Positions 3,577 through 46,264 of a stretch of DNA of 64,000 nucleotides are shown one piece after another. Within the stretch, counting starts at the first letter, position 1. Each line of letters starts with the position of its first letter. The translations under genes were made by a program, and so were the position numbers. The stretch spans positions 54,478 through 118,477 of the forward strand of contig JAXMHG010000006.1 of the NCBI GenBank assembly GCA_046346875.1, given 5' to 3'. Under the pieces are notes generated by a model. It ran no database searches, was not told the DNA's origin, and was given only the letters and a program-made list of their open reading frames with translations. The DNA comes from Turneriella sp. GTDB lineage: Bacteria > Spirochaetota > Leptospiria > Turneriellales > Turneriellaceae.

Positions 3577-5499
3577 ATGAGTACAACACAAACCTTTGAA
3601 TTTCAGGCTGAAACAAGACAGCTGATGGATCTCATGATCCACTCCATCTATTCGCACAAAGAGATCTTTCTGCGCGAACTGATCTCGAACGCGTCCGATG
3701 CGATTGACAAGCGTAAATTCCTCGGTTTGACTGACAAGTCTGTAACCCAGGAAACCAACAATTTCATTCGCATCGAAGTCGACAAGACCGCGCGCCGGCT
3801 CACGATTACCGACACGGGCATCGGCATGAGCCGCGACGAGGTCGTGCAGAATATCGGTACGATCGCGCGTTCGGGCACGAAAGAGCTCATCGAGAAGGCG
3901 AAGGCTTCAAAAGATGCCGTCGATCTGATTGGCCAGTTTGGTGTAGGCTTTTACTCCGCCTTTATGGTGGCCGACAAGATCACGATGATTACCCGCCGTG
4001 CCAACGAAGAATCGGCGACCCGCTGGGTATCGACCGGCGCAGGCACGTACACTATCGACGACGACAGCCGTGCGATGCCGGGTACAACCATAACCCTCGA
4101 CCTCAAGCCGGCTGACAAAGAAAACGGCCTGGCTGATTTCTGCGATGAGTTCGAAATTGAGTCGGTCGTGAAGAAGTATTCTGACTTCATCACATACCCG
4201 ATTTTGATGAAGAAGACCATCTACAAGACCGTCGGCGAAGGCCAGGACGCCAAAACTGAAGAAAGCATCGAAGAAGCGACGCTCAATTCGATGAAGCCGA
4301 TCTGGACCCGCAGCAAGAGCGACGTCAAAGACGAAGAATACAACGAGTTCTATAAGCACATCTCGCACGACTGGGAAGATCCCCTCAAGGTGATCAGCTA
4401 CCGCGCCGAAGGGCGTATCGAATACGTCGCGTTGCTTTACCTGCCGAAGCGGGCGCCATTTGATCTCTACTACACGAGCTTCAAGGGCGGCCTGCAGCTC
4501 TACGTAAAGAAGGTACTGATTCTTGAACGCGCTGAAGAGCTGCTGCCGCGTTACCTGCGTTTCGTGCGCGGCGTCATTGAAAGCGCTGACCTGCCGCTCA
4601 ACATCTCGCGTGAGATTCTGCAACAAGACCGCCACATCACGGCGATTCGCAAGGGTCTGACGACCAAGATCATTTCAACGCTGACAGACCTGCTCGAGAA
4701 GGAGCGCGAAAAGTATGCAGACTTCTACCGTGAATTCGGGCCGGCGATCAAAGAAGGCGCTTCGACTGATTTCGAGAACAAGGACAAACTTGCCGGGCTT
4801 CTGCTCTTTGCCTCGTCTGCAGACAAAGAAAAAACCACGACGCTGCAGGAATACATCGATCGCATGAAGGCAGAGCAGAAAGAGATCTACTATCTTTCCG
4901 GCGAGTCGCGCCTGACGCTCGAGAACTCCCCGCACACCGAATCGCTGCGCGCCAAAGGTTACGAGATCCTCTACCTTGTAGACGCGTACGATGAAATTGT
5001 GCTGCAGAACATCGGCGAGTTCAACGGCAAGAAGTTCAAGTCAGCCAGCAAGGGTGAGCTTGACCTCGCTGACGAGAAACAGAAAGAAAAGGACAGCGAG
5101 AAAGTCAAAGAGGCAGAAAAAGCCATGGGTGCCCTGCTGGGTTGCCTGAAAGAGAACCTCAAAGACCAGGTGAAGGACGTGAAGTTCAGCTCTGTGCTGG
5201 TGAGCGCTCCGTCGCGCGTGGTCGGCGAAGACTTCGACATGTCGCCGTACCTCGAGAAAATTCTCGCGCGCAACGGCGAGAAAGTAGCGCCGCGCCTCAA
5301 GACGCTCGAAATCAATCCCGACCATGATCTGGTGAAAAAGCTCAATGCGCGCTACGAAGCGAACCCGGGCGATCCGCTGCTCGCGGACTACGCGCAACTG
5401 CTCTGGGGCCATGCAGTGATCGCTGACGGCGGCGAGATCAAAGACGTTGCCCGTTTCAACAAGTCGCTGCTGGCAGTGGCTTCAGGGGCGCTGCAATAA
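3577..5499 (+). CDS. htpG: Molecular chaperone HtpG (Hsp90)
   Basis: FEFQAETRQLMDLMIHSIYSHKEIFLRELISNASDA, IGQFGVGFYSAF; start moved from 3520 to the ATG at 3577. Confidence 0.97.
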   Translation: MSTTQTFEFQAETRQLMDLMIHSIYSHKEIFLRELISNASDAIDKRKFLGLTDKSVTQETNNFIRIEVDKTARRLTITDTGIGMSRDEVVQNIGTIARSGTKELIEKAKASKDAVDLIGQFGVGFYSAFMVADKITMITRRANEESATRWVSTGAGTYTIDDDSRAMPGTTITLDLKPADKENGLADFCDEFEIESVVKKYSDFITYPILMKKTIYKTVGEGQDAKTEESIEEATLNSMKPIWTRSKSDVKDEEYNEFYKHISHDWEDPLKVISYRAEGRIEYVALLYLPKRAPFDLYYTSFKGGLQLYVKKVLILERAEELLPRYLRFVRGVIESADLPLNISREILQQDRHITAIRKGLTTKIISTLTDLLEKEREKYADFYREFGPAIKEGASTDFENKDKLAGLLLFASSADKEKTTTLQEYIDRMKAEQKEIYYLSGESRLTLENSPHTESLRAKGYEILYLVDAYDEIVLQNIGEFNGKKFKSASKGELDLADEKQKEKDSEKVKEAEKAMGALLGCLKENLKDQVKDVKFSSVLVSAPSRVVGEDFDMSPYLEKILARNGEKVAPRLKTLEINPDHDLVKKLNARYEANPGDPLLADYAQLLWGHAVIADGGEIKDVARFNKSLLAVASGALQ

Positions 5500-34724: not shown

Positions 34725-37700
34725 ATGTCTTCCGTCTGGCCAGAAAACGAACAGGCGCGTCTCGAGGCCCTGCGCAGTTACCAGATTCTCGATACGCTGC
34801 CTGAAGCCAGTTTTGACAGGCTCACCCGGCTTGCCTCGGCCATCTGCGGCGTACCGATTGCGCTTGTCAGTCTGATTGACACTGAACGGCAGTGGTTCAA
34901 GTCACGCGTGGGGCTTGATGCAGCAGAAACCGCTCGCAGCATTTCATTCTGCCAGCATGCGATTCTCGGTACAGGAATCATGGAGGTCGAAGATGCGACG
35001 CGGGACGACCGATTTCGCGCGAACCCCCTCGTTACGGAAGATCCCGAAATCCGCTTTTATGCCGGCGCCCCACTGATTGATCCGGATGGTTTTGCGCTCG
35101 GCACGCTCTGTGTCATTGACCGGCAACCCCGCAGCCTGACCCAGGAGCAGCGCACAGCCCTGAGAGACCTCGCCGATGAGGTGATGGAGCATTTGCGAGT
35201 TCGCAAAGAACGCGACCGGTACCGGCATACGGGGTTCAGGCTCACTTCGATCATCGAAGGCACAAACGTTGGCACATGGGAATGGAATGTCCAAACCGGA
35301 GAGACAGTTTTCAATGAGCGGTGGGCAGAGATTATCGGGTATCAGCTTTCAGACCTTGCCCCGATCAATATAGACACCTGGCTCCGGTTTGCGCACCCTG
35401 AAGATCTTGCTGAGAGTTCAAAACAGCTCGATCTGCATTTCAATGGAAAAGCGTCTTTCTATGAATGTGAATCGCGTATGCGTCACCGCGACGGTCACTG
35501 GGTGTGGGTGCTCGACCGCGGTAAAGTTTTCAGCCGTACAGAAGATGGCAAACCACTCTGGATGTACGGAACGCATCAGGATATTACCGAACGCAAGGCT
35601 GTTGAAAAAGCCCTCGCTGATAGCAAGGCGCGTTATGCTTCAATTGTTGCAGCGCTACCCGATTTGGTTTTCCTCTTCGATGCTGAGGGGCGCTACCTCG
35701 ATTGTCATGCTGGCGATCATACACGGTTCTGGATGCCACCCGAGAAGTTTATCGGCAGGCTGATTAACGAAACTATGCCGCCTGATTTTGCCGCACTCTC
35801 GATGGCGAAACTGAACCAGGCGCTGGCTTCTCGTTCTCTGATTACTTATAAGTATGATAGTCGTAATCCAGTCAGTGGTGAAATCGAGTATTTTGAGGCG
35901 CGTATGGTGCCGACAGCGCAGAATCAAGTGCTTTGCGTTATCCGTGATATGTCCACTGAAACGCGGCAGAACCAAAAGTTGGCGCATGCGCAACAGTTGC
36001 TCACACTCACAGGCCGCGTAGCGAGACTAGGTGCATGGGAATACAGGCCTGACTCGGGGGAGTTTCTGCTTTCTGAGGTAGCGCGTGAGATACTTGACAT
36101 TCCGCCGGATTCGACTTTTACATTGCACAGTGCATTAGAGCGTTTCATTCAGTCATCTGACCGAGAGTTCATGCTGAATAATCTGAACGCAGCCATACAG
36201 ACGGGCAGGCCATTTGAGGCGGAGATAGTTCTGAAGAATTTTCACAGAGAATCATTCTGGGCCAAAATCAAAGCAGCCACCACCTTTCTGGAAGGTGTCT
36301 GCGTGAGCGTCTACGGCGTCTTGCAGGATATCGATTCTGCCAAAAAAATACAGCTTGAGCTGGCCGCAGTGAGTTCACGGTTGCAGAGTATTTTTGACGA
36401 GATGACAGACGTTGTCTGGTCGGCGAGCTTGCCCGATTATACGACAACTTTTGTTACGCCGTCGATAGAACAGATGTTTGGCTATTCGCCCGACGAGTGG
36501 CTCAGCGGCCGTGATATGACGCGCAAGACCATACATGAAGCCGACCTGCCTCGGCTTGTCGAGATGTTAGATGAGCTGGAGAAATATTCTCAATCTGAAA
36601 AAACGTATCGAATTGTCACTAAAGACGGACGCATCAAATGGATCAGGAACAGGGTAAAGCAGGTCTGCGATGAAAATGGGGTGCCGATACGGTTGGATGG
36701 ATATGTATCTGATGTAACCGAATTGCAGGCAAACATAGACGACTTGAGGCATGCGCAATTTCTCGCCGAGAGAGCGAATCTTGCCAAATCAGAATTTCTC
36801 TCGAGTATGAGTCACGAACTGCGCACCCCGCTGAATTCTATTCTGGGTTTTAGCCAGCTGCTCGAACTCAACTCGGCAAATCATTTGGATAATGAAGAAT
36901 TGGATCAGATTACCCATATCAGAAAGGCAGGTTCTCACCTGCTTAATTTAATCAATGACATACTGGATCTTTCGAGAATTGAAAGCGGCACCATAGCGCT
37001 TACTGAAGAAGTTGTAGAGGTGGGACAACTTATATCCGATGTTATGGCTTTCCTTCGGCCTGTGGCCGTTGCCAGACAGGTTACATTCAAACAGTACCAT
37101 CATACTGAAACTTATGTAAAGGCCGATCGCCTGCGCTTGAAGCAGGTACTGCTGAACCTGATTTCGAATGCTATCAAGTACAATCGGGAGCGAGGATGGG
37201 TTGCCATAGAGGTGGATGCTCAGCATCGGGATAATATTCAGGTTAATGTTAAAGATTCCGGATATGGGATTGAGGCAGAAAAGTTGTCACTGCTTTTCCA
37301 GCCTTTCCAGCGTCTGGGTGCAGAACGGTCGCAGATTGAAGGTACAGGCATCGGCCTGGTCATCGTGCGTCGTCTGGTTGAGCTGATGTCAGGACGCGTA
37401 ACTGTAAGCAGTGTTCCGGGAGAGGGGAGTGTATTTTCACTGGAGATACCCCGGGCTGAAAGGCCGTCTCAGCCAAAGCAGACAATCAAGACCGATGGTG
37501 GCGGCTTGCAGCAGATAGCACAGGCTACGGTGCTTTACGTTGAAGACAACGCAGACAACCGCTTTCTGATGGAACGCTTTTTTTCGCGTATACCTGGAAT
37601 CCGGTTGTTATTGACAGAAACCGGAAGATCAGGAATTGAAATTGCCGCTGCGGAAAACCCCAATCTTATTTTGCTGGATATCCACCTGCCCGAATTGGAC

Positions 37701-37907
37701 GGCTATCAGGTGCTCAACGCATTGAGGCAGAGTAAGGAAACTGCAAAAATACCGGTTGTGGCAGTCTCTGCCGCAGCCAACGAGCAGGATATCAGGAAGG
37801 GGCTGGCGGCCGGTTTTGATGATTATCTGACGAAGCCATTAAATTTGGATATTCTGACGGAGGTCGTTCTGAAATTCTGCAAAGCGCGCGGTGGCGGCCA
37901 GGGATGA
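34725..37907 (+). CDS. Cytoplasmic hybrid histidine kinase: GAF - multiple PAS - HisKA - HATPase - REC
   Basis: GAF (IRFYAGAPL), PAS/PAC repeats, H-box SMSHELRTPLNSI, GTGIGL, REC ILLDIHLPELDG. Confidence 0.92.
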   Translation: MSSVWPENEQARLEALRSYQILDTLPEASFDRLTRLASAICGVPIALVSLIDTERQWFKSRVGLDAAETARSISFCQHAILGTGIMEVEDATRDDRFRANPLVTEDPEIRFYAGAPLIDPDGFALGTLCVIDRQPRSLTQEQRTALRDLADEVMEHLRVRKERDRYRHTGFRLTSIIEGTNVGTWEWNVQTGETVFNERWAEIIGYQLSDLAPINIDTWLRFAHPEDLAESSKQLDLHFNGKASFYECESRMRHRDGHWVWVLDRGKVFSRTEDGKPLWMYGTHQDITERKAVEKALADSKARYASIVAALPDLVFLFDAEGRYLDCHAGDHTRFWMPPEKFIGRLINETMPPDFAALSMAKLNQALASRSLITYKYDSRNPVSGEIEYFEARMVPTAQNQVLCVIRDMSTETRQNQKLAHAQQLLTLTGRVARLGAWEYRPDSGEFLLSEVAREILDIPPDSTFTLHSALERFIQSSDREFMLNNLNAAIQTGRPFEAEIVLKNFHRESFWAKIKAATTFLEGVCVSVYGVLQDIDSAKKIQLELAAVSSRLQSIFDEMTDVVWSASLPDYTTTFVTPSIEQMFGYSPDEWLSGRDMTRKTIHEADLPRLVEMLDELEKYSQSEKTYRIVTKDGRIKWIRNRVKQVCDENGVPIRLDGYVSDVTELQANIDDLRHAQFLAERANLAKSEFLSSMSHELRTPLNSILGFSQLLELNSANHLDNEELDQITHIRKAGSHLLNLINDILDLSRIESGTIALTEEVVEVGQLISDVMAFLRPVAVARQVTFKQYHHTETYVKADRLRLKQVLLNLISNAIKYNRERGWVAIEVDAQHRDNIQVNVKDSGYGIEAEKLSLLFQPFQRLGAERSQIEGTGIGLVIVRRLVELMSGRVTVSSVPGEGSVFSLEIPRAERPSQPKQTIKTDGGGLQQIAQATVLYVEDNADNRFLMERFFSRIPGIRLLLTETGRSGIEIAAAENPNLILLDIHLPELDGYQVLNALRQSKETAKIPVVAVSAAANEQDIRKGLAAGFDDYLTKPLNLDILTEVVLKFCKARGGGQG

Positions 37908-37941: not shown

Positions 37942-39042
37942 TCAGGCGATTGTTTCGTGAAGCATTTCGGGGAAATAGATTTCTACCTTCTGAGATTTGC
38001 CCCTAACACTGCTTTCCCTCAGTTTTTTGCATTCTAACTGCGAGCCAAGCAGGTGGCGTGTTTCGCTGTCGATCAGCATGTCAACACCTGCACGTTTCGT
38101 GAGTGTCTCCAGTCGCGCGCATAGATTGACCGGATCACCCAGGATCGTATACTCGACCCGGTGTACATTGCCTATATTCCCGGCAAAAACTTCACCGGTA
38201 GCGATGCCAATGCCGTAGTGAATAGTCTCACCGAATTCACTGGCGATAAAATCGTTGTACAATCTGAAATGTTCGCGTATTTTCATTGCACAGGTGATTG
38301 CGTTGCGGGTTGCGTGCGGTGAATAGCTCCTCAGTCCAAAAGTCACGAGAAAGCCGTCACCGGTGTACTTGTTTATTGTGCCACCATTAGAGAAAATCAG
38401 ATCGGACAGATCTGAGAAAAGTTCACTGAGAAAGACAAAAAAACGCTGGGGTCCAAGGCGCTCTGCCAGGGTCGTTGAACCACGAAGATCAAACATCATA
38501 AAAGTTCCGCGCACGATGTGACCTCCCGGTTCGGTGGAAATCGTGCCATCCAGAATCGCGGCAATAAGGTCACGCGAAAAATATTTGCTTAACTTGCGGA
38601 GGTCATCCTGCGCCTTATACTGAAGATTGTTTACCGTTTTCCGGTAATTCTGCATTGCCAGCAGTGCTTTGACCCTGAGGCGGAATTCGGCATGAACAAA
38701 AGGTTTGCGTAGCAAATCATTCGCTCCGAGTTCAAGTGCCTGTACCGCCGACTGGTGGTCGTCGTCGCCCGTGACGATTAATATATCCGGGTGCCGCTCG
38801 TGCTGCCTGTTACAGATTTTGGCCAGAATTTCCAGTCCGGACATATCCGGTAGATTGAGATCGAGCACTATAAGATCGGGCTGCCATGACTCGAGTTGTT
38901 TTAGTCCCTGCATGCCGTCATGTGCGACACGGACTACACAGCCGAGGCTCTCAAGCAGCGCCTGCTCAATCTTCGCTGTGGTCGGTTCATCTTCAATCAA
39001 CAATACACTCGATGTAATGGAGGCGGGTGCTTGAATTTCCAT
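37942..39042 (-). CDS. Response regulator REC - class III adenylate cyclase
   Basis: LLIEDE, VLDLNLPDMSG; FDLRGST, NKYTGDG, YTILGDPVNLCARLE. Confidence 0.9.
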   Translation of the reverse strand: MEIQAPASITSSVLLIEDEPTTAKIEQALLESLGCVVRVAHDGMQGLKQLESWQPDLIVLDLNLPDMSGLEILAKICNRQHERHPDILIVTGDDDHQSAVQALELGANDLLRKPFVHAEFRLRVKALLAMQNYRKTVNNLQYKAQDDLRKLSKYFSRDLIAAILDGTISTEPGGHIVRGTFMMFDLRGSTTLAERLGPQRFFVFLSELFSDLSDLIFSNGGTINKYTGDGFLVTFGLRSYSPHATRNAITCAMKIREHFRLYNDFIASEFGETIHYGIGIATGEVFAGNIGNVHRVEYTILGDPVNLCARLETLTKRAGVDMLIDSETRHLLGSQLECKKLRESSVRGKSQKVEIYFPEMLHETIA

Positions 39043-39106: not shown

Positions 39107-39712
39107 TTATATCCACCGGTTATTTTTGGCTACCGCAACCGCCTCGGCTGTTGTGCTCGCTTTGAGAATTTCCTTGATATTGCGCTTGTGATAGTCTACG
39201 GTGACATCACGAATTCCCAATGCCTCTGCGATTTCTTTGGTTTTCTGCCCCTGTGCGATGAGTCTGAGCACATTGAGCTGTGCTGCGGTCAGAGGTAAGG
39301 CCAGGCTGCCGGGTGAAGGTTTAAATTCTGGAAAAATATTCACTCCATTGACGATCGCGAGCACGCTGTCGCGTACCCTGGAGAATTGCTCTTGCTTTGA
39401 GATAAATCCGTTAAAGCCCAGTCGTTTGCACCGCAAAACGGTATAATCGTCTGAGTCGGCGGTATAGGCAATAAAAATAACATATGGGTATTTTTGCCTA
39501 AGGTGCCCAAAGTCGCGCTCGAGATTCATTTTAGGCATATTGAGATCAAAAAGGACGGCATCGGGCTGGTGCTGTTCGATCGCGGCACTGGTTTGCCGGT
39601 AATCCGTGCAAGCAAAAACCAGGGCAGTTTCTTCAGCTTCAAACAGAGCGGAGAGGCCTTCGACAATTACCGGGTGATCGTCGACAATCAATAACGAAAG
39701 TGAATTTGGCAT
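39107..39712 (-). CDS. NarL/FixJ (LuxR-HTH) response regulator
   Basis: LIVDDHPVIVEG, LFDLNMP, LTAAQLNVLRLIAQG...TVDYHKRNI; start moved to ATG 39712. Confidence 0.9.
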   Translation of the reverse strand: MPNSLSLLIVDDHPVIVEGLSALFEAEETALVFACTDYRQTSAAIEQHQPDAVLFDLNMPKMNLERDFGHLRQKYPYVIFIAYTADSDDYTVLRCKRLGFNGFISKQEQFSRVRDSVLAIVNGVNIFPEFKPSPGSLALPLTAAQLNVLRLIAQGQKTKEIAEALGIRDVTVDYHKRNIKEILKASTTAEAVAVAKNNRWI

Positions 39713-39810
39713 AAAATTTGCAAGCGAGGTGCGGGGCAGCCATTGCTGACAGTAGGACATTCAAGCTATAGCCGAAATGTACACTAGAATTCGTATTCCT
39801 ACCGATTAAA

Positions 39811-39849
39811 ACTCGGGAAATCTGTAGTGTGACTATGGTTTTCTTTAGT
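39811..39849. promoter_or_regulatory. Tandem palindromic operator pair 1 (7-4-7, spacer 3)
   Basis: ACTCGGG-AAAT-CTGTAGT gtg ACTATGG-TTTT-CTTTAGT. Confidence 0.65.
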
Positions 39850-39976
39850 TTTTGTCATCCATGCTATTTTCATTGATGAGAGCTTATTGTAGTATACATT
39901 AGCGTCGAACCGACCGTTAGCTTAATAGGCTCGTTCCTCCCGCCGGATATACCTCTGGCTAAAATTCGTCTCGCGG

Positions 39977-40015
39977 CCTGCAGAATACTGTAGTTGAACT
40001 CAGGTTTTCCTTAGT
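39977..40015. promoter_or_regulatory. Tandem palindromic operator pair 2 (7-4-7, spacer 3)
   Basis: CCTGCAG-AATA-CTGTAGT tga ACTCAGG-TTTT-CCTTAGT. Confidence 0.65.
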
Positions 40016-40116
40016 CTGAACTATTATTTGTCTTTTCGCTCTTTAACCTCAGCAGGATTGTTTTGTTCATCAAGTACGCTTTCGCACGTAGTGCCAAGCG
40101 CGAACTGATTTGGAGA

Positions 40117-42105
40117 ATGGAGAACGTGTTTAAGTTCATTGAAAGCATTGGGGCCTTGCCAGACGATTCGCCGGGATTAAGGTTGCAGAAGCGGTTTCTT
40201 GTCTACCTGGGATCTGCAATGAGCCTCGGGGGAATTCTCTGGGGATCTTTGTGTCTTTATTTCGGTCTCACCCTGCCGGCGGTGATTCCGTACGGTTATG
40301 TCGTGCTGACTGTCCTCAACTTGTCTGCTTTTGCCGTTTTCAAAAATTTCGCACTCGCACGATTCTTTCAGGTGCTCATCAGTTTGGCGCTCCCTTTCAT
40401 GTTTCAATTCGCCCTGGGTAGTTTTGCGTCTACCGGGGCCATCATGCTCTGGGCCCTGATTTCGCTCGTGGGTGCATTTACATTTGAGTCGCTCAAAAAC
40501 ACCATCTATTGGCTGGGGCTTTATATCGCCCTGACGATTGCCATGGGGATCTATGATTCGCAGTCTCTGGCACAGATGTCGGTTGCCAAAGAGGTAAGCA
40601 CACTCTTCTTTGTTCTGAACATTACTGTAATATCTACCATCGTCGCCGGGTTGTCTTACTACCTGCTCAAGAGCAGAGGGCGGCTTCTCGAAGAACTCGC
40701 CGAAGCCAAGCGAGAGACCGACGCCGTTATGGCGTCTGTCGATGAAGGGCTGTTTCTGCTTACACTTGCCGGTGATGACTATATTGTGGGCGCGGAGCAA
40801 TCTGCCGCAACAAGCAGGTTGTTTGGCGGCAACAAGCTGCCAGCCACAGAATTCTCCCGCGCATTGGAGACCTTCCTGAGCCCGCACAAAACCCAGGAAC
40901 TGCAAAATTTCCTTAAGCTGCTCAGATCAGGAAAGCTAAAGCCTTCCATGATCATGACGCTAAACCCTTTAGACCAGGTGCCAATTAGTATGGGCGCGCT
41001 GACCGATGTAAAGTTTCTCCGTTTTGGCTTCTCGCAGGTGCAGTCAGGCAGGAACGATCAGTATTTGGTTAGAATTTCTGATATCACCGAAGAAAAGAAA
41101 CTGCGGGAACAGCTCGAAGAGACAGAGCGAAAAAACGCCAACCACACGCAGATGATTCTCTCTGTGCTTCACGTTGGGCCTTCGATGCTGAGGGACTTTC
41201 TCTCTGGTACGGAGTCAGAACTCAAAATCATTATGGACATTCTGCAGAGCGACCATACGCCGGAGCAGGTTGCCGCCCGCCTGGAAGAGCTCTATCGCTC
41301 AGCACACTCGATTAAGGGCAATGCGTCGTTACTGGACCTGGGTATTATTGTCAGTTCTACTCATGATCTTGAAGAAAAAATCCAGGCATTGCGCGAGAAA
41401 CCAGAACTCCGCTGGGATGACTTTTTGCCTGTTGCTACCGAAGTCGCGAATTTGCAGGAGACGCTTGCAGGTTTGCATGGTTTGTTGGGGCGCATTGAGA
41501 GTTTTCGCGAAGAAGATAATGCAGTCATGCGGTCCGCTGTGTCCGGTATACCGCGGGTAGTTTCCGACATGGTAGGGCGCCTGGCGCAGCAGGTCGGTAA
41601 GCGCGTGCAGATTGAAGCCTCTGGCTTTGATCAGGTTGAAATCCCCTATCGGCATGCGTATTTCCTGCGCGACGTTGTTGTACAACTAGCTCGAAATGCC
41701 GTGGCGCACGGAATCGAGCATCCCGAAAAGCGCAAGCAGTCAGGCAAAGCAGAACACGGCAATATTGCTATCGGGTTGGCGAAAAAAGGTGAAATGATCG
41801 AGCTGCGCGTGTACGACGACGGAGCTTCGTTTGATCTGGAGGCAATTCGTCGCAGCGCCGCAAGGCGTCGAAACGCCCCTGAGAATGTGGCATCTGACTG
41901 GACGGCCAAAGAACTGGTGAAGTTTATTTTTGAGCCGGGATTCTCTACTGCGGAAGATGTCACGACTACCGCAGGCCGGGGGATGGGCATGGATATTATA
42001 CGCCAACGGGTGCGCCAGATGGGTGGTGATCTGCGGATAAATTACGCACCGGGGTCGTTTACCGAGTTCACAATTACCATGCCCGTTGAAGTGGCGCCGG
42101 CATAA
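40117..42105 (+). CDS. Membrane-integrated CheA-like (class III) histidine kinase: multi-TM sensor - PAS-like - Hpt - HATPase, no CheW domain
   Basis: About 6 TM helices; LYRSAHSIKGNA (Hpt); QLARNAVAHGIE, DDG, FEPGFSTAEDV...GRGMGMD; protein ends after the HATPase. Confidence 0.88.
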   Translation: MENVFKFIESIGALPDDSPGLRLQKRFLVYLGSAMSLGGILWGSLCLYFGLTLPAVIPYGYVVLTVLNLSAFAVFKNFALARFFQVLISLALPFMFQFALGSFASTGAIMLWALISLVGAFTFESLKNTIYWLGLYIALTIAMGIYDSQSLAQMSVAKEVSTLFFVLNITVISTIVAGLSYYLLKSRGRLLEELAEAKRETDAVMASVDEGLFLLTLAGDDYIVGAEQSAATSRLFGGNKLPATEFSRALETFLSPHKTQELQNFLKLLRSGKLKPSMIMTLNPLDQVPISMGALTDVKFLRFGFSQVQSGRNDQYLVRISDITEEKKLREQLEETERKNANHTQMILSVLHVGPSMLRDFLSGTESELKIIMDILQSDHTPEQVAARLEELYRSAHSIKGNASLLDLGIIVSSTHDLEEKIQALREKPELRWDDFLPVATEVANLQETLAGLHGLLGRIESFREEDNAVMRSAVSGIPRVVSDMVGRLAQQVGKRVQIEASGFDQVEIPYRHAYFLRDVVVQLARNAVAHGIEHPEKRKQSGKAEHGNIAIGLAKKGEMIELRVYDDGASFDLEAIRRSAARRRNAPENVASDWTAKELVKFIFEPGFSTAEDVTTTAGRGMGMDIIRQRVRQMGGDLRINYAPGSFTEFTITMPVEVAPA

Positions 42106-42132: not shown

Positions 42133-42495
42133 ATGAAGATATTGATTGCAGACGATTCGATGATGGTGCGCAGGATACTGGAAAAATTCGCCCAGAAACT
42201 AAATCTGGAGATAGTCGGTACCGCCGGCAACGGTAAAGAGGCAGTCCGTCTATTTGGTGAGTTAAAGCCTGATCTTGTCTCGTTGGATATAACAATGCCC
42301 GAAATGGATGGCCTTTCCGCCATGAAGCAGATACTTGCTATAAAACCTGATGCCAAAGTGGTCATTATCTCCGCTGTAAACAGCAAAGATATGATTGTTC
42401 AGGCTTTGAACGGCGGCGCGAAAGCGTACGTGGTTAAACCATTCGATGAAGCTAAAATTGTAGAGACCTTCAACGAAGTTATCAATTCAAATTGA
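42133..42495 (+). CDS. cheY: Single-domain response regulator (CheY-like)
   Basis: ILIADDS, VSLDITMPEMDG, YVVKPF. Confidence 0.9.
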   Translation: MKILIADDSMMVRRILEKFAQKLNLEIVGTAGNGKEAVRLFGELKPDLVSLDITMPEMDGLSAMKQILAIKPDAKVVIISAVNSKDMIVQALNGGAKAYVVKPFDEAKIVETFNEVINSN

Positions 42496-42504
42496 GGTGG
42501 AAAA

Positions 42505-42951
42505 ATGAAAGAAGCAGAACTAAAAATATTCGTTGAAGGTGTCTCAAATTTTTTTGGCAGATTGGGTGGAACGAGCATCCAGGTGGGTGTTCCGTATATT
42601 AAGGAAGGAAATCAGTTCATAAGTGATATGACTGGAATTATCGGCCTTACAGGTAAACGTAAAGGAGGCATTTTCATAACCTGCACGACAAGCATGGTAG
42701 ACGATGTCATAGCACAGTACACGGGAATGGCCGATACGTCGCCAGAGGCGCGTAAAGATATGATTGGTGAAATCGCTAACACAATTTCGGGAAATGCGTC
42801 CGATGCTTTTGGCGTCGATTTTCAAATTAGCGTGCCTGTAGTCATTACCGGCAAGCCCGAAGGTGTCGATATGCCAACCCGCGTCCCAACCTACGTAATT
42901 CCGCTGCATTGGGGTGAACACAAAGCATACCTTGTTGTTGGCGTTGAGTAG
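42505..42951 (+). CDS. cheX: CheY-P phosphatase CheX
   Basis: GIIGLTG, DMIGEIANTISGNA (ExxN), ISVPVVITG. Confidence 0.9.
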   Translation: MKEAELKIFVEGVSNFFGRLGGTSIQVGVPYIKEGNQFISDMTGIIGLTGKRKGGIFITCTTSMVDDVIAQYTGMADTSPEARKDMIGEIANTISGNASDAFGVDFQISVPVVITGKPEGVDMPTRVPTYVIPLHWGEHKAYLVVGVE

Positions 42952-43062: not shown

Positions 43063-44856
43063 ATGGACCTGAGGACACTCTACTTCGCACTGAGCGTGAT
43101 AGCATTATCAGGCCTGTTTTTGTCCTTTACGGCGATCACACGAGCAGAGAAAAAAGGGATATACTGGAACATGGGGGCTTTCAGTCTCTGTGTTGGCACT
43201 CTGCTCCTGGGGCTTAGGGGTGTGGTACCTAATGTCCTGTCGATTCAGCTCGGCAATGTGCTGATGCTCACGGTAGCGCCACTGATTGAAACCAGTATCC
43301 GTCAGTACCTGCTGCGAAGGACTATTTCCCTGTCGATGCTAATCGTTTCTGCCGCAGCCATTCTCATTTTTGCAGCGACTGCGCATGCGGCTCCTCTGGC
43401 TCTCAGGGTTCGCATTGTGAGTATTGCTTTTGCGATGCAGTGCTTGATTATCGCCTGGCACCTCCTGCAGCTGCCGAAGGCCCTGCGTTCCAGATCTACA
43501 TACCTATTCTTAATTGCATTTGGTGTACTCGGCATTCTCTCTGCCCTGCGCGCAATCCTGGCTGATGCTTACGTCGACGAGCGCGACATGTTTGCCCTGA
43601 AAGGGTTCACAATGTACTATTTAGCTGCTTCGATAGGATTCGTCATGATTATACTGAACGGTTACGGGTTGCTCGTTGGCGACCAGAACATCCGTGAGTT
43701 GGAGAAACTCAAATCTTCAGCCGAGTCTGCCAATAAGGCAAAGTCCCAGTTTCTCGCAAATATTAGTCACGAAATTCGGACACCGCTGAATGCTATTGTA
43801 GGCCTTTCGGATGTACTGCTGTCAGCGCCTGGTGAGAGTGGCATGTCGCATCACGTAAGAACAATACGGGCGAGCGCAATGCATCAGTTGGATCTGGTCA
43901 ACGAAATTCTCGATTTCGCCAAGCTTGAAGCAGGTAAATTCGAGATAGATCCTCACCCGGTCAGGTTGGGTGAATTCCTCACGGAAATTTCCGGTATGGT
44001 CCGCCCCATGGCCGCAGCAAAAGGAATAGGCTTTCTCGAAGAGTATGAGTCTGATTTGCCCGCGCTCGTCATAATGGATTCAAACCGGTTAAGACAGGTA
44101 ATTCTGAACCTGCTGAATAATGCTGTTAAGTTTACAAATACTGGCCTGGTTGCGCTGCGGGTCGATATACCGCGGAGATTTCACGCGTCTGTGCTTCTGA
44201 CTTTCAGCGTTATCGATACCGGCATAGGCATCGATCCGGTATCGACGGAAAAGCTCTTCGACGCATTTGAACAGATTGACGGGTCAATTTCGCGACGATT
44301 TGGAGGAACGGGGCTGGGGTTGGCTATTAGCCGTCGGATTATCAGGCTGATGGGCAGTGAGATTGAAGTGGAATCAGAGAAGAATTTTGGTGCTCGCTTC
44401 TTTTTTACGATTAAAGCAGCGTTGGCCGATTTGTCTGAAACGAATAGCCACCGGTTTGAGACTTCGTTCGACCCTGGTCGCCGCATATTACAAAAGGCAA
44501 AAATACTTGTTGCGGAGGATAATGAAGTCAACCGGGAAGTAATCCGTGCAATGCTGGATCGCATAGGGCTCACAGCTTCATTTGTAGAAAATGGCCAGCA
44601 GGCTGTAGAAGCCGCTGTCACAAACAGGTATGACCTGGTGCTCATGGATCTGCAGATGCCAGAGGTGGATGGCCTGACTGCAACTCGCCTCATGCGTGAG
44701 CGCGGTATCCGCTGCATTATCGTTGCGATGACCGCCAACACGGCTGAAAGTGATCGTGCTGATTGTATTGCGGCAGGCATGGACGATTTTCTCGGTAAGC
44801 CCGTGACCCTCAATGCTCTGTTCGAGACCTTGCTGAAACATTTGCGGCCCGCTTGA
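43063..44856 (+). CDS. Membrane (about 7 TM) hybrid histidine kinase with REC
   Basis: [38 protein letters not shown]. Confidence 0.9.
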
Positions 44857-44929: not shown

Positions 44930-46264
44930 ATGACCGACGAAATCTGGAAGTTTATCTCAAGCGCCAACGAAGCTGATTTGCAGGCGGAGCTTATCCGTTA
45001 CGTCTCGCTTTTCCAGATCAATGAAGTGCTCTCCTCGACACTTGAATATGACGAAGTCTTGCGGCTGGTATTGCAGGAAATGCGCACGCTTTCGGGCGCC
45101 GAAATTGCCTCTATCTTCCTTATCAATAAGAAAGACCAGGTGCTGGAATTCGCCGCTACAACCGACGAAAAAGCAGATTTGCTCAAGAACATCCGTGTGC
45201 CGCTCGGTAAGGGAATTTCCGGGTATGTTGCGCAAACCGGCGAGTACGTAAACCAGAGCGATATACAGAGTGATACGCGCTATTATAGAGAAGTAGATGT
45301 AACACGGGGCGGGGAGACCAAGTCGTATCTTTGCGTGCCGCTGAAACTGCGCGGCGAGATTAAAGGCACGGTGCAGCTCATGAACAAAGCGGGCGGGCAC
45401 CCGTTCAGCGACGCAGATGTCAGGCTGATGCTGAATTTCTCCAGCCAGGCGGCAATGGCGATTGAGACTTCGCTCCTGCACCGCGAAGCCCTTACCAAAA
45501 AGGCGTTTGAGCGTGATGTGCATCTTGCAGCAGACATACAGCGACAGTCTCTGCCGAATACGATGCCGCAGGTGCCGGGCTATTCTCTGTTTGGGCATAC
45601 CGAACCTGCGCAGGATGTCGGTGGTGACTACTTCCAGTTTATTAATCACGTCGACCGCACGGGTAACAATAAACTCGATATCATCGTTGCCGATGTAGCC
45701 GGAAAGGGAATTCCCGCATCGCTCATCGTTTCGAATTTTCATGCAGCGCTGCAGCTGCTTTCACCACTCTACGACACGCTGGGCGAACTTGCCTTCCAGC
45801 TGAATAACTTTATGCGGCAGAACCTGATTACTGGTACCTTTGTGACGGCATTCATAGCACGACTCGACGCCGCCACAGGTAGAATGCATTACGTCAGCTG
45901 CGGGCATAATCCCCCCTTTATCTTTCGCAAGGCTGACGGGCAGTATACGGCTGAGTTGCTGCAACAGAGCGGCACTGCCTTCGGGTTACGCTACGATATG
46001 GAATACCGGGTACACAGGTTGGATTTTAAGCCCGGCGAAACCCTTTTGATCTATTCCGATGGTATTACCGAAGCCATGGATCGGGAAAATGTGCAGTACG
46101 AAACCGATCGCATGAACGCAAGCGTGATTGCGACTCTGTCAAAGCAGGGTAGCGCAAATGTTGCCGAGCAGATAGTGGAGAACCTGCGCAAAGATGTTGA
46201 TCGTTTTCGCCAGGGTGCAGAAGTTAATGACGATCTTACAGTTGTTTGTCTGCAGAGGGAATGA
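44930..46264 (+). CDS. GAF - PP2C/SpoIIE phosphatase
   Basis: GAF (SYLCVPLKLRGEIKG), VGGDYF, DVAGKGIPASL, YSDGITE, NDDLT. Confidence 0.88.
   Translation: MTDEIWKFISSANEADLQAELIRYVSLFQINEVLSSTLEYDEVLRLVLQEMRTLSGAEIASIFLINKKDQVLEFAATTDEKADLLKNIRVPLGKGISGYVAQTGEYVNQSDIQSDTRYYREVDVTRGGETKSYLCVPLKLRGEIKGTVQLMNKAGGHPFSDADVRLMLNFSSQAAMAIETSLLHREALTKKAFERDVHLAADIQRQSLPNTMPQVPGYSLFGHTEPAQDVGGDYFQFINHVDRTGNNKLDIIVADVAGKGIPASLIVSNFHAALQLLSPLYDTLGELAFQLNNFMRQNLITGTFVTAFIARLDAATGRMHYVSCGHNPPFIFRKADGQYTAELLQQSGTAFGLRYDMEYRVHRLDFKPGETLLIYSDGITEAMDRENVQYETDRMNASVIATLSKQGSANVAEQIVENLRKDVDRFRQGAEVNDDLTVVCLQRE

Follow-up and report, generated by a model that had tools for sequence, protein, structure and literature searches.

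Gene content of the locus

The window (i.e., the whole 64-kb stretch of Turneriella DNA analysed here) contains a 404-bp intergenic region, 39713-40116, that lies between two divergently oriented units: the gene for a NarL/FixJ-type response regulator on its left (minus strand) and a kinase-CheY-CheX operon on its right (plus strand). The cyclase gene situated downstream of the regulator gene, on the same strand, is probably co-transcribed with it, and this pair of genes also occurs in the related loci L002-L005. The coordinates of these genes, together with those of the regulatory elements described below, are collected in Table 1.

Table 1. Genes and candidate regulatory elements of the window, and sites of the same motif in related loci (designated by L numbers)
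Feature	Position or locus	Strand	Sequence or remarks
Response-regulator adenylate/guanylate cyclase	37942-39042	-	Pfam Response_reg + Guanylate_cyc
NarL/FixJ-type response regulator, 201 aa, proposed binder	39107-39712	-	Pfam Response_reg + GerE (LuxR HTH)
S1, site of pair 1 closest to regulator	39811-39828	no strand	ACTCGGGAAATCTGTAGT
S2, best site	39832-39849	no strand	ACTATGGTTTTCTTTAGT
TTGTCA, -35-like hexamer (low confidence)	39852-39857	+	abuts S2, +12 to +17 from its centre
S3, weak site	39977-39994	no strand	CCTGCAGAATACTGTAGT
S4, site of pair 2 closest to kinase	39998-40015	no strand	ACTCAGGTTTTCCTTAGT
Membrane-anchored CheA-like kinase, 662 aa	40117-42105	+	Pfam Hpt + HATPase_c; start from homologue N-termini
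CheY-like single-domain response regulator	42133-42495	+	
CheX-family CheY-P phosphatase	42505-42951	+	
Site between Hpt kinase-cheY-cheX operon and regulator-cyclase pair	L002 clade, L008, L009, L016-L018		
Site between 7TMR-DISM hybrid kinase (divergent) and regulator	L006		
Site upstream of hybrid-kinase-regulator operon	L011		
Site upstream of cheY-cheX-CZB-kinase-regulator operon	L014		
Site upstream of regulator	L029		about 105 bp upstream
17-bp variant site upstream of regulator	L028, about 4727-4743		ACTAGGAAAACCTTAGT; left half one base shorter
Second site, cytochrome-c-peroxidase-kinase-cheY-cheX paralogue	L002, 10441		
Second site, hybrid kinase	L009, 6396		
Second sites, hybrid kinase/Hpt divergent pair and second Hpt gene	L028, 7195 and 7951		

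The regulator gene had been assigned a start at 39760 in an earlier, sequence-only reading of this DNA, which corresponds to the longest open reading frame (217 aa) and overcalls the gene by 16 codons: Because the homologues are 194-204 aa in length and the alignment with them begins at the ATG at 39712, this ATG is taken as the start. The phospho-acceptor pocket of the protein is intact and canonical, and 15 homologues share with it residues D11, D12, D56, T84 and K106 as well as the helix VTVDYHKRNIK. Its closest solved relatives are EvgA, VraR, DesR and NarL; the best NCBIfam matches are all far below their cut-offs and, since no model reaches its cut-off, the regulator is without a named orthologue. 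Close relatives are few (14 proteins with E < 1e-20), and all of them are metagenomic.

The kinase consists of an N-terminal multi-pass membrane region followed by an Hpt domain and then by a CheA-type catalytic domain (residues 472-660), and neither a dimerisation (P3) nor a CheW-like (P5) domain was detected in it. Its membrane region matches no Pfam family and has a conserved start, MxxFFxFxxxIGA...LRLQKR, and homologues are encoded at L002 2849-4837, L009 1862-3874 and L010 1-1938. CheY and CheX always accompany this kinase, and no MCP or CheW is encoded nearby. The kinase-CheY-CheX set resembles a pathway of chemotactic origin whose output has been redirected to transcription and cAMP.

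The locus as a whole is part of a dense signalling island (34725-37907, 43063-44856 and 44930-46264; L028 2403-3737 is also relevant) whose genes include a GAF-PAS hybrid kinase, a hybrid kinase immediately after cheX, and a GAF-SpoIIE (PP2C) phosphatase. A GAF-SpoIIE gene adjoins cheX in L028 too, so this association may be conserved. No operator-like site was found ahead of the hybrid kinases or the GAF-SpoIIE gene of the window.

Four sites arranged as two phased pairs

Within the intergenic region are four 18-mers, S1 to S4, in two 18-3-18 pairs with site centres 21.0 bp apart, an arrangement noticed in the sequence-only reading and confirmed here at the same positions. The centres of S1 and S2 fall at 39819.5 and 39840.5, and that of S3 (39985.5) is exactly 21 bp from that of S4 (40006.5), as in the first pair; adjacent centres are therefore an integral number of helical turns (i.e., two) apart in both pairs. 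The centre-to-centre distance between the pairs is 166 bp, which at 10.5 bp per turn amounts to 15.8 turns and, judged from distance alone, is roughly in phase. Given true starts at 39712 for the regulator and 40117 for the kinase, the nearest start codon is about 100-135 bp away from either pair, with S1 centred 107.5 bp from the regulator ATG and S4 centred 110.5 bp from the kinase ATG.

The motif is a 7-4-7 inverted repeat of 18 bp, ACTAnRG-WWWW-CYnTAGT. Pooling of 30 half-sites yields A-C-T-A-n-R-G-W-W, in which T3 and G7 are invariant and the information is concentrated at ACTA..G, with A/T at the centre. The consensus offered previously, ACTnnGG-WWWW-CYKTAGT, fits S1, S2 and S4 and fails for S3, the left half of which is CCTGCAG; and each 18-mer, taken alone, is only weakly palindromic (5-6 of 9 positions self-complementary, with a chance probability of 0.05-0.01 per site). 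An alternative unit, the inner 7-3-7 palindrome CTGTAGT-N3-ACTAnGG, was rejected: Relatives carry the 18-mer alone, and these single copies identify it, rather than the inner palindrome, as the unit.

The sites differ in quality. When scored with a matrix trained on non-window loci only, S2 attains 25.8 bits, which is the top match in the whole window, S1 21.5 bits and S4 19.2 bits; S2 and S1 depart from the refined consensus (ACTANRGWWWWCYNTAGT) by zero and one mismatches, respectively, and S4 is identical to S2 at 15 of 18 positions. These three are strong sites, whereas S3 is half-good, with a right half that is perfect consensus and a degenerate left half. At 12.2 bits, S3 scores below a chance match inside typA (14.5 bits) and is within the range of chance matches, and it is probably occupied solely through cooperativity.

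The two pairs also constitute a 33-nt direct repeat (39817-39849 and 39983-40015, 76% identity) that was recovered by a repeat search, and when the intergenic region was halved and its halves were aligned locally, the score was 34, compared with a mean of 20.2 (sd 3.2) and a maximum of 33 over 300 shuffles. A repeat longer than 33 nt was not supported by gapped alignment. Because an identity of 76% barely exceeds the sharing expected between two independent instances of the motif, the pairs may have arisen either by duplication or by convergence. As a separate observation, an 11-mer (CTAGAATTCGT at 39784-39794 and CTAAAATTCGT at 39959-39969) lies ahead of each pair on the plus strand, by 16 and 7 bp; no continuity between it and the 33-nt repeat emerged from gapped alignment.

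The motif is not a dispersed repeat

That the motif occurs nowhere else in the window, as the sequence-only reading had it, was borne out: At two or fewer mismatches, ACTANRGWWWWCYNTAGT is matched in the 64 kb only by S1-S4. Allowing three or fewer yields 10 matches against 1.98 expected, a number that no shuffle got to; the six that have three mismatches (11010, 16032, 18065, 20188, 30253 and 47886) are all within open reading frames and were treated as chance. With a matrix that includes the window sites, S1-S4 score 19.2-23.1 bits, compared with a mean best score of 11.5 and a maximum of 17.4 in first-order Markov simulations of the window.

One could suppose that such repeats are copies of a dispersed (REP- or MITE-like) element, parts of a structured leader RNA, or chance similarities, and not protein sites at all, since palindromes can form hairpins and each 18-mer alone is weakly palindromic. 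This possibility is very remote. In addition to the lack of further copies at two or fewer mismatches in the 64 kb, there are none outside promoter regions in the 114 kb of related loci; Rfam, even at a permissive threshold, returned only a spurious lncRNA match; the RNA fold energy of 39800-40120 is not unusual (z = -1.7); and the motif is conserved between loci whose encoded proteins are only 47-60% identical, despite the divergence of its flanks. The refutation proposed at the outset, a motif dispersed without regard to promoters, was pursued in these related loci, and the reading as operators survives it: All matches of at least 15.5 bits are intergenic and upstream of the regulator gene or its operon, of kinase-cheY-cheX operons or of hybrid kinases. 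A search for small open reading frames in the intergenic region produced none that was convincing.

Conservation of the motif in related loci

For comparison, 29 loci were fetched, all of them through the regulator gene, and the set scanned comprised the 114 kb that fall outside the lineage of the window. A genome scan places the window closest to a Spirochaetota MAG (L007, 96% identity), and the relatives are Turneriella and Leptospiraceae MAGs; according to a read index, the organism inhabits activated sludge and wastewater, and it is known from metagenomes only.

A matrix built from the four window sites alone, applied to this 114 kb, in which the regulators are 47-60% identical, returned 13 matches of at least 13 bits against 0.57 expected, and 10 of at least 17 bits against 0.03 expected. 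All ten of the latter are upstream of regulator genes, kinase-cheY-cheX operons, hybrid kinases or Hpt genes. The test was also run in reverse, with a Gibbs sampler applied to eight upstream regions of non-window loci that had been picked by gene layout only. The sampler converged on the same 18-mer (19.1 bits), and the resulting matrix ranks the sites of the 64-kb window in the order S2, S1, S4, the typA match and S3, with the scores given above. The motif thus amounts to a phylogenetic footprint, persisting between diverged flanks in loci with 47-60% protein identity, and the earlier prediction that the four 18-mers are sites of the adjacent regulator gains support from the promoter sites found in this way.

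The gene arrangements around these sites are diverse (Table 1). The motif and the regulator gene are constant partners while gene order differs between clades (with the qualification that the loci were fetched via the regulator), and second sites at paralogous signalling operons fall within 5 kb of the regulator. Since the ungapped matrix missed the 17-mer of L028, scans of this kind undercount sites that bear indels. Some relatives deviate: L012 has only a variant, of which just the inner 12 bp are palindromic; L010 likewise has a variant site, in which G7/C12 is swapped symmetrically for C7/G12 in both halves, as expected for the site of a dimer, and its sites, which are weaker, number two and lie apart, with one close to either gene; and no site is present in the 360-420 bp available upstream in the P0003 clade (L026/L027).

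Could these be the sites of some other transcription factor, e.g., a global regulator encoded elsewhere that controls the island, with the adjacent regulator binding elsewhere or nowhere? Several sites precede operons that lack the regulator (those at L002 10441, L009 6396, and L028 7195 and 7951). Moreover, a perfect 16-bp palindrome (AAAATCAATTGATTTT) occupies part of the interval that separates the operator from the start of the kinase gene in L002 (about 4868-4883, minus-strand reading) and at the same place in L008 (14 bp), L016 and L017, and is absent from the window. This palindrome may be bound by a second factor or belong to the core promoter, so that more than one factor may act in the L002 clade. 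Against such a factor, the regulator gene is the sole constant neighbour of the motif across the rearranged loci (which were, however, fetched via the regulator), homologues with the motif all have the same recognition helix, and an 18-bp 7-4-7 palindrome is typical of the GerE-type regulators of this family (PMC2837388). Taken together, we consider control by another factor to be improbable, and the adjacent regulator is the binder that we infer from the way in which motif and gene stay together in spite of rearranged gene orders, the fit of a 7-4-7 site to a GerE helix-turn-helix, and the intact pocket.

Paired sites are restricted to the window lineage

Relatives carry single sites, and the phased pairs occur only in the lineage of the window (i.e., the window itself, L001 and L007), where the intergenic region is 404 bp in length versus 58-240 bp in relatives. 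Because these three sequences are nearly identical, the conservation of the paired layout among them is uninformative with respect to function. In the L002 clade, the kinase ATG is always 72.5-73.5 bp from the centre of the operator, and the regulator start is at varying distances from it (91.5, 160.5 and 172.5 bp): The operator of that clade is geometrically tied to the kinase promoter. The distances in the window (107.5 bp from the regulator ATG and 110.5 bp from the kinase ATG to the nearest site) fit an arrangement with one pair per promoter.

These patterns bear on whether both pairs are functional. If function were limited to one pair, or to S1, S2 and S4, pair 2 would be a relic, now in decay, that a local duplication had left without a regulatory role, and the double architecture would be incidental. 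This view draws on the sufficiency of one site per promoter region in relatives, on the degeneracy of S3, and on the confinement of the paired layout to one lineage of nearly identical sequences. Countering it are the strength of S4 (19-20 bits), the exact 3-bp gap kept in both pairs, and the length of the intergenic region, which exceeds that of relatives and is sufficient for two separate promoters with a pair apiece; furthermore, L010 too has two separated sites, one per gene. On balance, we regard a relic as unlikely, and favour two operator pairs that are both in use.

A second natural haplotype of the region exists, in which CGG is replaced by AAT in the left half of S1, with the ACT, G7 and the right half being kept. 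It is represented by L001 and by contigs identical to it from wastewater metatranscriptome or 'RNA-Seq' datasets, which are undirected, have adapter ends and also span the intergenic region, and which therefore yield no transcription starts. L001 and this wastewater haplotype differ from the window only in the left half of S1, the spacer and the regulator leader: Identity between L001 and the window is about 70% in the leader (39713-39775 versus L001 812-873) and 100% over 39831-40116. So abrupt a change near S1 suggests that strains have recombined inside the promoter region.

Promoter signals and the direction of regulation

A scan for sigma-70 promoters and terminators across 39600-40250 returned one weak match, inside the regulator gene, and none in the intergenic region. 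The -35-like TTGTCA next to S2 has a counterpart, TTGACG, at the same operator offset in the L002/L008/L016/L017 clade. No convincing -10 element follows TTGTCA, and across 15 operator-gene pairs the distance between the operator and -10-like hexamers is inconsistent, there being a loose cluster at +21 to +30 in some relatives and hexamers at +16 and +39 in the window. The placement of TTGTCA and TTGACG would, by analogy, fit an activator that works in the manner of BvgA. The operator of L006 ends 7 bp before the regulator ATG, a geometry that fits repression of the regulator gene there better than activation. With regard to the system in general, our guess leans slightly towards activation (i.e., positive autoregulation) over repression.

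Pair 1 is bracketed by an inverted repeat (AATGTACACTAGAAT at 39776-39790 and ATTGTAGTATACATT at 39886-39900) whose arms are complementary at 13 of 15 positions, and each arm reads TAGTnTACATT outwards. In the leader of L001, which has otherwise diverged, the left arm stands out as a conserved island, and the arms may represent -10 regions for two promoters pointing away from each other; given that chance would produce about 0.09 such pairs in the region (a rough estimate), the repeat is suggestive only.

Comparison with characterized regulators

One of the two closest documented parallels is SsrB, the NarL/FixJ-family regulator of Salmonella SPI-2, which recognizes an 18-bp degenerate 7-4-7 palindrome that tolerates a weak second heptamer and that was found by conservation of footprints across species (PMC2837388). 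Two copies are situated upstream of ssrA, the gene for its own kinase, such that the two-component genes are autoregulated (PMC2837388). The motif described here, for which binding is predicted from sequence, shares with that of SsrB both the degenerate 18-bp 7-4-7 palindrome and the tolerance of a weak half, but the sequences of the half-sites are unrelated, the window has two pairs that are each exactly phased (18-3-18), and the window regulator is only a distant relative within the family.

The phasing finds its parallel in BvgA, which binds the Bordetella fha and ptx promoters as head-to-head dimers on inverted heptads that are 22 bp apart and on one face of the DNA, with strong sites nucleating the filling of weak neighbours and the proximal dimer abutting the -35 element (PMC7250471). 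In the window, likewise, tandem sites are two helical turns apart on one face, and the -35-like TTGTCA next to S2 is no more than a lead towards a further parallel; the spacing, however, is 21 rather than 22 bp, and each array would accommodate two dimers instead of three to six.

NarL, as a REC-GerE regulator that binds inverted heptamers as a dimer, is similar in kind and differs in detail, with a spacer of 2 bp instead of 4 bp and a half-site of TACYYMT instead of ACTAnRG. A NarL-type 7-2-7 site was considered and rejected, there being no 7-2-7 match in 39713-40116 and one stray heptamer only. The 18-bp EvgA box, which our literature search did not confirm, is not counted as evidence. The literature that we searched on Turneriella and Leptospira held no account of this system.

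A model for the regulation of the module

From these comparisons, we think it likely that the four 18-mers are autoregulatory operators of the adjacent NarL/FixJ-type regulator, with one dimer per site and the two dimers of a pair on one face of the DNA. A phosphorylated dimer would bind each 18-mer through its GerE-type helix-turn-helix, and the two dimers of a pair, 21 bp or two helical turns apart, would occupy the same face. Because of this same-face 21-bp spacing, a strong site (S2 or S4) could recruit a dimer to its weaker neighbour (S1 and, especially, S3). Pair 1 would serve the regulator-cyclase unit and pair 2 the kinase-cheY-cheX unit and, as such, the signalling module would govern its own synthesis.

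A more elaborate version can be envisioned, in which an ancestral single shared operator was doubled twice, a regulator octamer bridges both pairs into a DNA loop, and the pathway delivers its output to transcription and cAMP. We hold this to be doubtful. If it were true, the loop would provide a sharp, possibly bistable, coordinated switch for both divergent units, and these units would belong to a chemotaxis-derived pathway without receptors and CheW coupling.

As judged from sequence comparison, the element is very probably an ordinary autoregulatory operator of a well-known kind, newly defined for an uncharacterised subfamily of regulators, with the doubling into phased pairs being specific to one lineage. 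The general view of how such regulators work is unchanged. For the response-regulator subfamily of these uncultured, Leptospirales-like spirochaetes of activated sludge, it would provide a recognition motif, ACTAnRG-WWWW-CYnTAGT, and with it a first regulon that can be scanned for in MAGs: the regulator's own gene, operons for CheA-like kinase, CheY and CheX, hybrid kinases and Hpt proteins. The region would also serve as a small and clean example of operator evolution, in which one site shared by divergent promoters in the relatives corresponds to two phased pairs in the window.
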